A stretch of 63,998 nucleotides of DNA, filler included, from Anaeromyces robustus (GCA_002104895.1; 5 parts of 5 records of this genome joined end to end with filler, not necessarily neighbours in it); one strand, 5' to 3'; shown: positions 16,248-21,611, numbered from the whole stretch's first letter. The notes: generated by a model from the sequence alone, not told the origin. Made by a program: numbers and translations.

Positions 16248-16280
16248 TTAATTAATAATATGAATTTCATTAATATTATC

Positions 16281-16313
<33 letters not shown>

Positions 16314-19300
16314 GTTATTAGTATTATTATCATCATTTTCGGATTGTTCATCAAAAGAATCCAAAATAATTTCAGTAAGATCTAAATTATAAGTTAAATT
16401 ATCATCATCTTCTTCTTCATTTTCTATTTCATTTTCTTCTTTTACATTTAATTTTTTATTATTGGAATGTTTGAAATGTTTATTATTAAATTTTAAATAA
16501 TGTTTTTTTGATTTTTTTTGATTTTTTAAATATTCTGCTATATCGGAAACATTAGCTATAGCTTTTTCAGAATCTTCATTAGTAATAATTTCAGACATAG
16601 TCATATTACTAATATCTCCCTTTAATGCTCTCTTTTTAATCTTTGTTTTATTTCTAACAAATGGTACATAATAAGATATGGTATAAATAATGGTAGAAAT
16701 TCTATAGAAAAAGGTAGATACTGATTGATAACAAACTGGGAAAACGACACATACTTCAAATGGTAATTTAATATCTGGTCTACCATGAGCAATAACAAGA
16801 TTAAATACATCTAAACTAAGGTAGGCTAAAGCATAACTAATACAAATAATCATTAAAGCTTGTACATAGGATCCTTTTATAAATAAAAAGGCAAATAAGA
16901 TAATAAAAAGATAATCATTAAAAATGGTAATAATAAAATCAGTACAACATAATTTTGCGGTTAAAGTAGCACGATGATTCCATTTACATTTATGCGTAAT
17001 ACAATCTAAAAATTTAAAAAGAAAACGATGACGTGCTGGTTCCCAAAATACAATACGTTGACGACTTAATGAATATTGACCACATTTACAATCTTTAAGA
17101 TATTTACCTAAGAAATGAGGTAAATATTCTTTAAGATGCATATAACATCCTGGAACAAGAGTACTGACAGAAACATGAGCAATTTCAATTTTATAATTAC
17201 CACAATGTTTTTCATTAGGATTACAAAATTTAGGTTTACCATATAAAGTATGAAGTCGAATACCTAATTGTAAATCTTCACCACGGAATACCGTATCATG
17301 ACGATAAAGACATTCTAATAAAAATGGTACACTCCATGTACCAATAGCTCCACTTGGGAAAACTACAGTACCTATATCACGATGTATTTTTTTACTATAC
17401 ATTGAAAGAGTATATTCGAAATTTTGAAAAGCTGGAACAATACCTTCTCTACGATTACTAGTAGTAATAGGATAAGCTAAAGCTTTAACATTTGGATCTT
17501 GGAAATAGGATAAAATTTCTTCTTCTTTCCAATTTTCAGGAATTAAAACATCATCATCAATGACAGAAATATATTCAATATCGATACCAAACCAATATAA
17601 ATTATTTAATAAACAAAATTGAGCTAAAGTTTTAGAACCTTCATTTAAATTAGCATAAATAATATCTAATCCATGATAATTAGGATGAGTATCTTTATAT
17701 TGTTGACTATAATAATCAATAACTTCTTTCATTTTCACTTTTTCTTCTTGACAGGAACCATTTTCGGCGATGAAAATGGACATAGGTGTAGTAACTTTTA
17801 ATAAACATTTTAAAGTTTCAGGTAATACATCCGAACTATTATGACAAACAATTAAGAAACCATGTCTTACACTTTTATACATTCCAATAATTTCTGCTTG
17901 TTCATCCGAATAAGAAGGAATATTTTTAGAATGGAAAACTTTATCATTCTTTTCTTCTATTCTTGAACTTTTAATACTTAATCTTTCATTAACAGATTGA
18001 GTCATTTGAGATATGGTATCATCATCATCTTCTTCTTCCTCATCATCAGAAGCAACAGCAGCAGCAACAGCAGCAACAGCAGCAATAATATCATCATCAT
18101 CATTATCCATAGTATTATTTGAAATAAATGAATTATTATAAGATTTTGGTTCAATTGGACTACATGGATTATTTTCTAATATATCAATAACATCAATTTC
18201 ATCAATACTACTATTATTTTTATTAGTTGGACTACATGGATATTCATTAGCATCATCATTATCATCAAAAGGTTCTTCAAAAATTCTATCTCTAACCTCT
18301 TTATTTTCATTTTGACTATCGGTATTTTTTATTTCTATAGAAGGATTACTATTACTGGAACTACTACAATTTATAAAGGTAGTATCATTAATACTATGAT
18401 TAACAATACTATTATCATCTTCAAAAAGTAAATTATTTAAAGTCGTTTCTGAATTATTTGGTTTTTTATAATAATTTCCATTAGAATTCCTTTGATTCTT
18501 CTTAAGTTTAGGCCATCTTACAAATGGTGCAAAAATTAAAATAAGGAAATTTTCACGATTAATAATTAACCATAATATAATATTTACAGTATTATCAAGT
18601 TTACTGGTAGGACCATAGAAATTTATAATATAATTATAAACTTGTCTCTCTAATACTTGATATAAATTTGGTTTCCATTTATCATGTGTCCAGAAATAAA
18701 GAGAAGTTCCTACAACCATTAAAATACCTAAAGTCATACACCAAAGTTTAAGTAAAGTGGAAGGAAGTACTCTAACTTCTTTATCCGAGAAGAACCATAC
18801 TATTGGATTAATAAATAAAGCATAAAGAAGATGAATAACAATAAAAATAATAGCTATTAAAAAGGCATTTGTAAATAATGAATATAAGTTAAAAGGAATT
18901 TTAAATTTATAAAAATCAATATCTCCACGATACTTTATCCAATTTTTTAAATTATTAAATTCCTCTTCAAAGTCTAAATTATTATCATTATTTCTTTTAG
19001 TAAGTTGACTAGTTTTATTGTTATTGTTATTGTTATTGTTATTGATTTCAATTAAATTATCCCATTTTAAATCATTATGAATCATTCTATAAATACTTTC
19101 CATTCTTTTAAATACTTTTCCATTGGCAATATAATTATAAATAATATCTTCAATATAATTTTCAAATTTAAATTGTTTATCCGTAAAAGATATTAAATAA
19201 TCAAAAGTTGGTCTTTTCATGGCTTCAGTAGAATTTCTATTGAAACGATAGTTATTATAAGGTAATGATAAAGATTGTTTATCCCACGTATTAAATGGTG

Positions 19301-21611
19301 AACTATAATAACCTTCATGATAATTCCATTGATTACTTGACTGATTTTATTGAAATGAAAAATTATAATATATAAAAAAATTAATAAATAATTGTTAGTT
19401 TGTTTATATAATAAATTTATATAAAAAAAATTAATAAATTTATAAAAAAAAAATTAATAAATAAATTAGTAATAATAATAAAATTAAAATATATAAATAA
19501 TATATAAATAATATATTTATAAATATATAGATAAATATATAAATATATATTAGAATATATATTAGAATATATATAATAATATATTTTTATATATATGTAA
19601 TATATAAATTAATTTAACAAAATTAATTTAAAAATATACATATATACAAAAAAAAAATTTTTTTTTTGTATTAAAAAAAATTTAATTAAATTTTTAATAT
19701 TATAAATTAATAAATAATAAAAATAATAATAAATTTTCCACAATATTAAAAAAAAAATATCCATCATTATAAAAAAAAAATTTTTAAAATTATATTTTAA
19801 CAGAAAAAATTATTAATATTATCCATCTATATCTATATATAGTATTAAAATAAAATTATTAATATTATCCATCTATATATTAATTGTGAAAAAAAAAAAA
19901 TTTTTTTTTAATATTATCCATCTATATAATTATAATAATTATAATAATTATAATTATAATAATAATAATAAAATAAAAATTTTTTTAATATATCCATTTA
20001 TATAATATAATAAAAATAAAAATAAAAATAAAAATAAATTTTTTTTTTAATACAAACTTTATCTAAATATAAAAAGTAATTAGTGGCATTATATAGGTAA
20101 GCATGTTCATTATTTACTACATAATCAAGAGCCATAGATTTTAAGAAATCATTAATATTAAAAACATTATTGATTTCTTCCAATGAAGTAGGTTTTTGAA
20201 ACTTTTTAAATAATTCTGATAAATCTGTTTTATTATGAGCAATTTCTGGAATTTCTTGACCTTGATACCAATAATTAGCATAATTATCGGTTTCTTCTTC
20301 TTGATTTAAACGTTTTGGATCAGAATTAGAAATATTAAAAGTGTTATTATGATATACCATTGGAGAAAATTTTGAATTCAATTGTCCATACATTTCAGAA
20401 GTTTCATATTTTTGTCTAAAATAATGAATATTTGGATTTTCTTTAATTAAATAAAAACCAAGAGGTTCATTATTGAAATAAATACGGGAATAAGCTACTT
20501 GAGCGGTTGGAATACCCATATTATTACAAATATCCATATAAATTTTATTACGTAAAAGAAGATTATCTGTTGAAGTAGATAATAATTGAATACTTGTACT
20601 ATTATATACATAATTATGAACCTTACCACCATCATCAATATAAGATGATGATGTTGTCAAAGTATTATTACTATTATTAAAAGAAAGAAAATAAGAACTT
20701 TTTAAATCATTGTAGTTATTCATTTCGTATTCAGTAGAGTTAGTATTAACAGAAGAAGAAATAGAAGAAATAGTAGTATTATTATTAGTAGTAGTAATAC
20801 TACTAGAATAAATATCAGTATTTATTTTTTCGGCAAAAGTATTAATTTCTAATAAGGCATTATTAAATGATTTCACAGTATATGGAGTAATGATAGTAGC
20901 ATCAACTTTAAGAGAAGGAATATTATTTTCTTTTTTATAATAAGCTTCTTTCATAATCTTAAATTGATGATCATCACCTGTTAAATGAATTGTCGATATA
21001 TATTTATCATTAAAGAATTCAGGTTTCGAAAATTCATCATCATTTTTATTATTCTTTTCATTTTTATCTTTTGTAAATTTTGGATGTTTAAAAATATTAT
21101 TTTCTCTACTAAAGAAATCATTTAATGTTGTTACTTTTGAAGAAGGATTAACAATATTAGGTAATCTTTCAAAGTTTTCTTCTTCTATTATAATATTACT
21201 ATCAATAATTCTTGAAATATAGTGATATGTATAATCATCAGATTCTAAGTTATATTCTCCTTTCCAAATAGGATAATCAGCATCATTTAAATTAATGATA
21301 TGATTATTATTATTTATTTTTACTCCTATTGTGGTAGTATTTCTATCAACAAAGGCAATTACACTAAATTGATAGAGTTCTATTTTTTTTTAAAAAAAAA
21401 AAGATAAAATGAAAAAAATTAAAGAAATAATAATTAATATATTTAGTTTAAAAAATATAAAATTTTTTATTTTCATTTTTTGTTTATATTTTCATATTTT
21501 TTTTATATTTTATTTAAATATTTTTAAATATATAATTTATTATTTACTTGAATAAACTTTGGAAATCGAAATGATAACAAGAAATAAATAATAATAGCTT
21601 AAATAACTCAT
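16248..21611 (-). CDS. CotH-like ectodomain fused to a membrane GT2 (processive glycosyltransferase) domain; exons 21611-21548, 21379-20058, 19340-16248; ~1492 aa
   Basis: Exon 1 is a signal peptide (MSYLSYYYLFLVIISISKVYS). Exon 2 has fungal CotH motifs (FSVIAF, TLNDFFSR, FFNDKYISTIHLTG, LRNKIYMDICNNMGIPTAQVAYSRIYFNNEPLGFYLIKE, FNINDFLKSMALDYVV, TNYFLY). A phase-0 GT..AG intron joins it in frame to exon 3, which completes CotH (KRP..., IHNDLKWD, LKNWIKYR), then TM helices and GT2 motifs (AENGS, GSK, IDDD, QNFEY, PSGAIGTW, GED, RQRIVFW), then further TM helices. Confidence 0.85.

Follow-up and report, generated by a model that had tools for sequence, protein, structure and literature searches.

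The stretch analysed here, called the window, comprises 63,998 nucleotides (filler included) from the anaerobic gut fungus Anaeromyces robustus (GCA_002104895.1). The element in question is a minus-strand gene at positions 16,248 to 21,611, whose predicted product is a protein of 1492 residues. It joins an N-terminal domain of the CotH family, known from Bacillus spore coats, to a C-terminal membrane glycosyltransferase of family 2 (GT2) through three hydrophobic helices. This CotH-GT2 fusion is real and conserved. The features of the gene, from its 5' to its 3' end, are listed below in window coordinates (aa, amino acid position in the spliced product; HMM, hidden Markov model; TM, transmembrane segment). 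P0003 is the deposited A. robustus model and P0017 a relative whose structure was predicted.

21548..21611, minus strand: exon 1, with the ATG and the signal peptide (aa 1-21, MSYLSYYYLFLVIISISKVYS), ending in phase 1 at donor GTAAAT; from splice arithmetic and the leaders of relatives
21380..21547, minus strand: intron 1, 168 nt, GT..AG, about 10% GC; from the sequence
20058..21379, minus strand: exon 2, 1322 nt, with a beta-sandwich (aa 22 to about 110) and the first part of the CotH domain (aa 148-462); from Pfam CotH and the P0017 model
within 20058..21379, minus strand: insert of exon 2 within the CotH fold, rich in Ser, Thr and Asn, about aa 205-275
20103..20105, minus strand: His447 of an NNEH motif, in the column of Bacillus subtilis CotH Asp228; from hmmalign and MAFFT
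19341..20057, minus strand: intron 2, 717 nt, GT..AG, 3-9% GC, with three 30-nt direct repeats; from the sequence and the P0003 junction
18921..19340, minus strand: start of exon 3, C-terminal part of CotH (aa 463-602); from the HMM match across the junction and the fold boundary
19308-19328, minus strand: WNYHEGY (aa 467-473), in place of bacterial PWDYD; invariant in the clade
18525..18878, minus strand: membrane block with TM1 (aa 617-641), TM2 (aa 653-679) and TM3 (aa 714-734); from hydropathy and flanking charges
17940..18524, minus strand: low-complexity acidic linker (aa 735-929), predicted to be cytosolic; from the drop in identity and the charges
17073..17879, minus strand: GT-A catalytic domain (aa 950-1218); from invariant columns, the model and fold matches
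within the GT-A domain, minus strand: motifs HNSSD (aa 962-966), NGS (aa 989-991), DDD (aa 1057-1059, at 17550-17558) and GED (aa 1149-1151)
16977..17072, minus strand: interface helices with QRIVFW (aa 1223-1228, at 17043-17060); from the alignment and model helices 291-315
16659..16973, minus strand: three long C-terminal hydrophobic helices (aa 1252-1283, 1287-1312 and 1323-1356); model helices 323-354, 358-383 and 394-427
16248..16658, minus strand: C-terminal tail (aa 1357-1492), Lys-rich and then acidic; stop codon at 16248-16250

Gene model and exon structure

The gene was read directly from the sequence. It starts with an ATG at 21611 and is made of exons 21611-21548, 21379-20058 and 19340-16248, which add up to 64 + 1322 + 3093 nt, or 4479 nt, corresponding to 1492 codons and one terminal stop. 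An earlier reading made without database searches (the sequence-only reading) had proposed these splice coordinates and this arithmetic, and both were found correct on rereading. Intron 1 has its donor GTAAAT at 21547 and its acceptor AG at 21381-21380; intron 2 has its donor GTTTGT at 20057 and its acceptor AG at 19342-19341. Two long open frames lie on this strand, at 19998-21389 (463 codons) and 16248-19346 (1032 codons). Across the gene region, GC content is 20-32% in coding and 3-10% in non-coding DNA.

The central observation is that exon 3 runs over 1031 codons without a stop and encodes the C-terminal 140 residues of the CotH fold together with the three helices and the whole of GT2. 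The motifs IHNDLKWD (aa 549) and LKNWIKYR (aa 593) of CotH stand in the same exon 3 frame as GT2, and the fusion is thus independent of the splice call, as had been claimed. The 1492-residue join is itself consistent with one gene encoding one protein. An HMM built in this analysis from 21 bacterial CotH domains detects a single domain at aa 278-555 of the spliced protein (E-value 5e-13), which crosses the exon 2/3 junction at aa 462. In full-length relatives the Pfam CotH match covers profile positions 12-321 of 322 and runs unbroken through the position of intron 2. Four of these relatives (P0006, P0011, P0013 and P0017) have a signal peptide followed by '(V/Y)(Y/F)(S/A)K..QF.V' or '..K..QF.V.A', matching the exon 1/2 join. 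Among metagenomic open reading frame (ORF) calls that ignore introns, P0165, P0167 and P0169 end exactly at the intron 2 position, and three further intron-blind calls (P0007, P0010 and P0015) begin within the C-terminal part of CotH and continue through GT2. The relatives that extend upstream of TM1 all show CotH sequence there, the shorter ones being truncated models. The order of the two domains, CotH first and GT2 last, was confirmed by the spliced translation, by the bacterial-CotH HMM and by fold comparison.

The protein deposited as BCR32DRAFT_295122 (P0003, 1105 aa) contains a part that is 100% identical to the exon 3 product, and it has the same exon 2/3 junction (...NYFLYLDK followed by SSNQWNYH...). 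The deposited model begins at a wrong-frame ATG inside exon 2 and enters the frame just before '...KPTSLEEINN' (window 20141-20305; 16248-20200). It thereby misses about 390 N-terminal residues (signal peptide, beta-sandwich and the greater part of the CotH fold), and its N-terminus needs correction. Sampled words of the stretch 16100-21750 occur in 17 listed sequencing runs, 9 of them recorded as RNA, and RNA runs contain a share of up to 0.80 of these words; exons make up 0.79 of the same stretch. The direct repeats of intron 2 are three copies of the 30-nt element TTATTAATATTATCCATCTATAT..., spaced by 46 and 49 nt (window 19810-19934).

Fold and catalytic residues of the CotH ectodomain

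Pfam CotH (PF08757) was detected on exon 2 with an E-value of 1.1e-13 and 51.8 bits, above the curated cut-off of 23.8, over profile positions 31-196 of 322. The fold was modelled on the leader, ectodomain and three helices of relative P0017, using a mixed fungal and bacterial alignment. The mean predicted local distance difference test score (pLDDT) of this model is only 52 because of long disordered parts, the ordered blocks scoring 70-90. Aligned with VIA-align, the P0017 ectodomain matches Bacillus cereus CotH (5jd9) with Z 23.0 and a root mean square deviation (rmsd) of 3.4 over 328 of 358 residues, and the next matches are other atypical kinases at Z 7-9 (best CtkA, Z 8.7). Consistently, Foldseek returned 5jda and 5jd9 alone at E <= 1e-3 (E ~1e-6). 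The fold sets in at residue 147 of P0017, equivalent to aa 148 of the window protein, in which it extends to aa 606, leaving about 10 residues up to TM1. Upstream of it, residues 28-110 of P0017 form a small beta-sandwich whose weak resemblance to a family 20 carbohydrate-binding module (CBM20; Z 5.0, 71-73 residues aligned) is a lead only.

Close relatives of the ectodomain outside this architecture were searched for in several ways. A word-based search for stand-alone ectodomains returned 5 fragments, all from the same clade, and tblastn against plasmids found no bacterial ectodomain relative. None of the 399 pattern matches from a scan of prokaryotic genomes with a CotH-only alignment could be confirmed. 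Sequence searches of the PDB with P0006 and with a six-sequence family profile gave no CotH or GT2 relative.

Bacterial CotH genes for comparison were taken from the genome of Bacillus spizizenii and 150 further genomes of its phylum, searched with the Pfam model. B. spizizenii CotH has D, N, D and D at positions 228, 233, 251 and 253. The columns at least 80% conserved among 19 bacterial CotH domains are G122, E128, N226, D228, N233, D251 and L278, with Asp in 18 of the 19 at D228 and likewise at D251. In the fungal clade, the structural positions G122, E128, N226 and N233 (Bacillus numbering) are retained in all 8 members compared. The D228 column reads N, N, H, Y, H, H, H, N, without a single Asp, and such variability within the clade is unlike a catalytic base. 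At D251, hmmalign places an Asp in 1 of the 8 members, which is an alignment shift, and gives Tyr for the window protein; two MAFFT alignments are both without Asp, one having Asn and the other Tyr. The bacterial PWD that includes D251 is replaced by an invariant EGY. In B. subtilis CotH, either D228Q or D251A inactivates the kinase (PMC7821199).

Between genera, identity is 45-53% in the CotH part, 17-33% in the linker and 68-76% in GT2. With both catalytic aspartates replaced in the clade and a sequence conserved well above that of the linker, the CotH domain is likely to be a constrained pseudokinase, a label that fits better than that of secreted kinase which the sequence-only reading had attached to it. 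Judging by their titles, none of the papers on CotH and pseudokinases in the literature searched concerns fungal CotH. Degenerate CotH copies occur in bacteria too. A second CotH-like gene of B. spizizenii (L115:1117-2040) reads, by eye, '..TNQG..' and '..SPIE..' at the aspartate sites, and in another gene (L139; genome G096, contig 4) the D228 and D251 columns are occupied by Asn and Ser; a canonical CotH gene (L131) is found about 900 bp away from it.

A fungal dockerin (CBM10) was not matched by Pfam in either exon product (E <= 1) or in six relatives (E <= 0.01). A direct link to the cellulosome, which the sequence-only reading had suggested, is thus without support and was dropped.

The GT2 module

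On exon 3, Pfam Glyco_tranf_2_3 matches weakly, with an E-value of 7.4e-07 and 29.9 bits, above the cut-off of 27. A HMMER search with the 431-residue module made of GT2 and its helices retrieved 338 relatives at E <= 1e-3, of which 171 at E <= 1e-10. An alignment of 46 sequences shows invariant columns at HNSS, NGS, a Lys, DDD, EY, G.D (GED or GDD), a His, C.C and QRxxxW. The DxD motif and the acidic pair are thus present, as the invariant DDD (aa 1057-1059) and G.D of GED (aa 1149-1151). The QxxRW that had been claimed from the sequence is literally absent. Its putative counterpart is the equally invariant QRxxxW (Q294, R295 and W299 in model numbering), here QRIVFW on model helix 291-305, with the W one residue further along.

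The AlphaFold2 model of the module has a pLDDT of 92.5 and a predicted template modelling score (pTM) of 0.90, and consists of a GT-A domain, two short interface helices and three long helices. Foldseek ranked the Chlorella virus hyaluronan synthase first (E 1e-10, TMq 0.62-0.65), followed in order by Xenopus hyaluronan synthase HAS1, yeast Chs1, oomycete and Candida chitin synthases, and BcsA. With VIA-align, hyaluronan synthase 8snc_A aligned at Z 23.0 and rmsd 3.3 over 335 residues, Xenopus HAS1 8smn_A at Z 22.5, Chs1 8k3u_A at Z 22.1, BcsA 9fnn_A at Z 20.4 and plant CesA at Z 18.5. The range aligned to 8snc_A, 22-427 of a model made without the N-terminal helices, takes in the three C-terminal helices, packed as in the solved synthases. 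By its predicted structure the module therefore falls in the membrane-integrated hyaluronan/chitin/cellulose-synthase class, as the sequence-only reading had proposed, and it is probably processive. An assignment as class I hyaluronan synthase or chitin synthase proper was rejected, identity being 12-17% and no family-specific Pfam match being found; in particular, Pfam gave no Chitin_synth match in the window protein. In the ESM Atlas the module resembled generic membrane GT2 clusters alone, a 'putative ceramide glucosyltransferase' cluster being among the look-alikes.

Membrane topology

Hydropathy delimits three hydrophobic segments between CotH and GT2 (aa 617-641, 653-679 and 714-734), the last of which bears an invariant NRENF (aa 723-727). 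The stretch just after TM3 contains 7 K/R against 1 D/E, which argues for a cytosolic GT2 and an external CotH. About three helices with this orientation were what the sequence-only reading had predicted. Chytrid relatives point the same way. Their short N-terminus leads directly into TM1, followed by Arg/Lys-rich loops (e.g. RVYRRRRLQR), so that the ancestral core is expected to have its N-terminus outside; a signal peptide and ectodomain added there would land outside and leave GT2 in the cytosol. TM2 and TM3 would match the two N-terminal helices of hyaluronan synthase.

Distribution and origin of the fusion

The fusion is present in gene models of A. robustus (two paralogues), Neocallimastix californiae and Piromyces finnis, and in further records. 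Both Pfam domains occur together in at least 6 public gene models or ORFs, each labelled 'hypothetical'; the Orpinomyces model and other short ones are truncated at the N-terminus. No description of a CotH-GT2 fusion was found in the literature searched, in which supplements were outside the search and subscription journals thinly covered. The claim that the fusion was undescribed thus stands for the literature searched, but the domain pair was already present, unremarked, in public models.

Outside the gut fungi, the nearest relatives, at about 40% identity, are from the chytrids Caulochytrium and Powellomyces, followed by Chromosphaera, Capsaspora, Barthelona, Globomyces, Basidiobolus and Perkinsus. 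In the chytrid proteins the N-terminus is formed by the three-helix block ('NRE' helix, 'RWP' exit) and GT2 follows, with no ectodomain. P0023 of Chromosphaera perkinsii (aa 1 to about 750) and a further relative, P0031 (aa 20-460), begin with a signal peptide that leads into another kind of large ectodomain, with the motifs '..RVY/RIY..' and 'ITEVG'. This ectodomain has no Pfam match and, in a PDB search with P0031, no sequence match; as a lead only, the ESM Atlas places ectodomains of this type near clan GH-A TIM-barrel glycosidases (GH2_C/GH72/GH5), with scores of 0.86-0.88. The membrane core with GT2 is thus old, since chytrids have it without an ectodomain and other eukaryotes with a different one.

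To survey the ectodomains, the best 150 of the 338 relatives were listed. Five gut-fungal ones were set aside and the other 145 scanned with the bacterial CotH HMM and an HMM of the gut-fungal ectodomain. CotH was found in 1 of these 145, P0060; with Pfam, CotH was found in 0 of the 34 non-gut-fungal relatives scanned. P0060 (1397 aa; GT2 32% identical) has the same layout of CotH, three helices and GT2 and shares the clade-specific Y(M/L)YN insertion, and its CotH site is near-canonical, with D228, N233 and D253 kept and Glu at 251. A homologue search with P0060 returned none but itself. A metagenome scan gave one partial relative of it, 82% identical, in which L142:1-1956 is a 651-codon open frame running from CotH into GT2. 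In this metagenomic lineage the linker between the membrane block and GT2 is short, and GT2 is interrupted by a long Asn-rich insert. At its 3' end (43% GC, NPVLTGSVV repeats), L142 looks like a chimeric join. Taken together, the distribution suggests a single ancestral fusion with a near-canonical CotH, whose catalytic residues would have been lost later in the clade of the A. robustus gene.

Comparison with known systems

Class I hyaluronan synthases (Chlorella virus HAS and Xenopus HAS1; 8snc, 7sp7, 8smn) are the best structural match (Z 22-23, 335 residues, rmsd 3.2-3.5). They share with our protein a GT-A domain with DxD and the acidic catalytic pair, interface helices, and membrane helices that flank the transferase on both sides. 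They differ by their low identity (12-17%) and by QxxRW where the fungal protein has QRxxxW; the latter also has an extra N-terminal helix bearing an extracellular module of about 600 residues, and a disordered linker of 200 residues. Chitin synthases (S. cerevisiae Chs1 8k3u, C. albicans Chs2, P. sojae Chs1) belong to the same structural class (Z 16-22, 359-375 residues aligned). Some chitin synthase classes carry an accessory domain such as a myosin motor. To our knowledge all these accessory domains are cytosolic, whereas the module is here extracellular and the Chitin_synth match is missing.

With the Bacillus CotH kinase (5jd9/5jda), the ectodomain shares the fold, a Pfam match above the cut-off and residues G122, E128, N226 and N233. 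It differs from it by the replacement of D228 and D251, an identity of 12-15%, the Ser/Thr/Asn-rich insert, and a membrane tether in place of a life as coat protein. In gut fungi, CotH is a frequent passenger of dockerin proteins (PMC8665504, PMC11291939, PMC12484212). About 20% of these dockerin proteins are CotH and have been speculated to bind the plant wall (PMC8665504), and a bacterial origin has been proposed for gut-fungal CotH (PMC11291939). Such cellulosome proteins are of the same phylum and domain family as the protein studied here, which differs in having no dockerin and no close stand-alone ectodomain relative and in being anchored by a synthase rather than a scaffoldin.

The closest functional precedent is bacterial. 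Secreted CotH-like genes lie beside Pel synthase operons in streptococci, clostridia and bifidobacteria, and deletion of SIR_1594 in S. intermedius lowers Pel levels and aggregation (PMC7112168, PMC12345266). There too an extracellular CotH-family protein is genetically coupled to a synthase-dependent polysaccharide, but as a separate operon gene and with a different synthase (PelF/PelG). This parallel suggests that the link between CotH and polysaccharides may be general. Finally, ZtGT2 and Cryptococcus CPS1 are fungal membrane GT2 proteins for which an unknown outer-wall or matrix polysaccharide has been proposed, with orthologues in some chytrids (PMC5653360). The comparison drawn is one of described features, and no ectodomain is described for them. 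No named Dikarya protein was found among the 30 relatives looked up.

Proposed function and alternatives

We consider it reasonably probable that this single A. robustus gene encodes a multi-pass membrane glycosyltransferase of the hyaluronan/chitin/cellulose-synthase class with an extracellular CotH-pseudokinase module acting by binding. GT2 would face the cytosol and use a nucleotide sugar, and, as for hyaluronan synthase, the glycan would cross the membrane through a channel formed by TM2, TM3 and the C-terminal helices. The CotH pseudokinase would sit with the beta-sandwich at the outer face, beside the exit. Both would act by binding and not by phosphorylation, keeping hold of the nascent polymer or directing it, or else attaching the synthase to a ligand of the wall or plant surface. 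A single fusion event, in or near the gut-fungal lineage, would have been followed by decay of the catalytic residues in this clade.

Several points weigh against this proposal. The canonical QxxRW is absent from GT2, and the archaeal N-glycan mannosyltransferase PcManGT (6yv7_A) ties with hyaluronan synthase at Z 23.0 over 291 residues, so that the fold alone is no proof of processivity. Three helices after GT2 would put the Lys-rich tail outside, contrary to the positive-inside rule. The model of the CotH fold is that of P0017 and not of the window protein itself. The invariant Glu of HEG, beside the lost WD, could serve catalysis, and the site of P0060 is such that activity may persist in some fusions. 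The support for both introns and for a single transcript is comparative.

In one alternative, which we regard as unlikely, the CotH ectodomain is still an enzyme. Acting through non-canonical residues (Asn/His or the Glu of HEG), this kinase tethered to the synthase would transfer phosphate to the nascent glycan or to proteins of the wall, within the secretory lumen or at the cell surface. Glycan kinases such as FAM20B, POMK and WbdD exist. The invariance of WNYHEGY in the clade would fit such a role, and with N226, N233, G122 and E128 kept throughout, the nucleotide pocket may persist; the residues kept by the sister lineage P0060 and the effect of SIR_1594 loss on Pel can be read in the same way. 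Yet a D228 column varying between N, H and Y is not what a catalytic base would show, D251 is Tyr or Asn according to the alignment and never a consistent Asp, and the loss of either residue alone is sufficient to inactivate the B. subtilis enzyme (PMC7821199). The supply of extracellular ATP also appears doubtful.

It is likewise improbable, in our view, that GT2 is non-processive, adding single sugars to a lipid-linked or glycolipid acceptor, with an ectodomain unrelated to any polymer. The tie with PcManGT, the non-canonical QxxRW, the ceramide glucosyltransferase-like cluster in the Atlas and the weak Pfam score would all agree with this. Most of the top matches, however, are polymer synthases aligned over greater lengths (335-372 residues) that include membrane helices, and the two N-terminal helices together with the C-terminal ones appear to mirror the hyaluronan synthase layout. 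Relatives moreover bear large extracellular domains, one kind being glycosidase-like (the lead mentioned above), which would be more sensible if a polymer emerges outside. That a secreted CotH gene and an adjoining membrane GT2 gene were wrongly joined by annotation is extremely improbable: the junctions do rest on comparison, the deposited model is wrong at its 5' end and some public models begin just before TM1 (P0009), but exon 3 carries both domains in one frame, intron-blind ORFs and the L142 frame span CotH into GT2, and the arrangement recurs in Anaeromyces, Neocallimastix and Piromyces models and further records.

Coming back to the synthase with a binding ectodomain, a wider reading can be put forward tentatively. 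The protein may belong to an 'ectodomain-coupled' hyaluronan-synthase-like family of opisthokonts and other eukaryotes, in which the helix with its N-terminus outside would repeatedly have gained a polymer-handling module: none in chytrids, a glycosidase-like barrel in Chromosphaera-type proteins and CotH in gut fungi. CotH and the CBM-like sandwich would then be a glycan-binding receiver, capturing a wall or matrix polysaccharide at the channel exit and fixing it to the wall or to plant fibre. If true, a concrete function would thereby be assigned to a CotH domain in fungi for the first time. Among the cellulosome proteins of gut fungi, CotH domains account for a large share, and in Mucorales they act as invasins. 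That such a fold, devoid of the kinase residues, is permanently tethered to a synthase on its outer side speaks for a role in binding or scaffolding that involves polysaccharides, and the gene offers a defined CotH-GT2 domain pair for testing. The GT2 family itself is conserved and unstudied in chytrids, gut fungi and unicellular relatives of animals, and its product may be an unknown wall or matrix polymer.

Other frames in the window

Most of the remaining long frames of the window have no Pfam match or sub-threshold ones. The other two are a minus-strand open frame at 48387-49154 with two Chitin_bind_1 (CBM18) modules (E 5.7e-19) and a plus-strand frame at 46054-46992 resembling an Rce1-like CAAX protease (E 6.9e-13).

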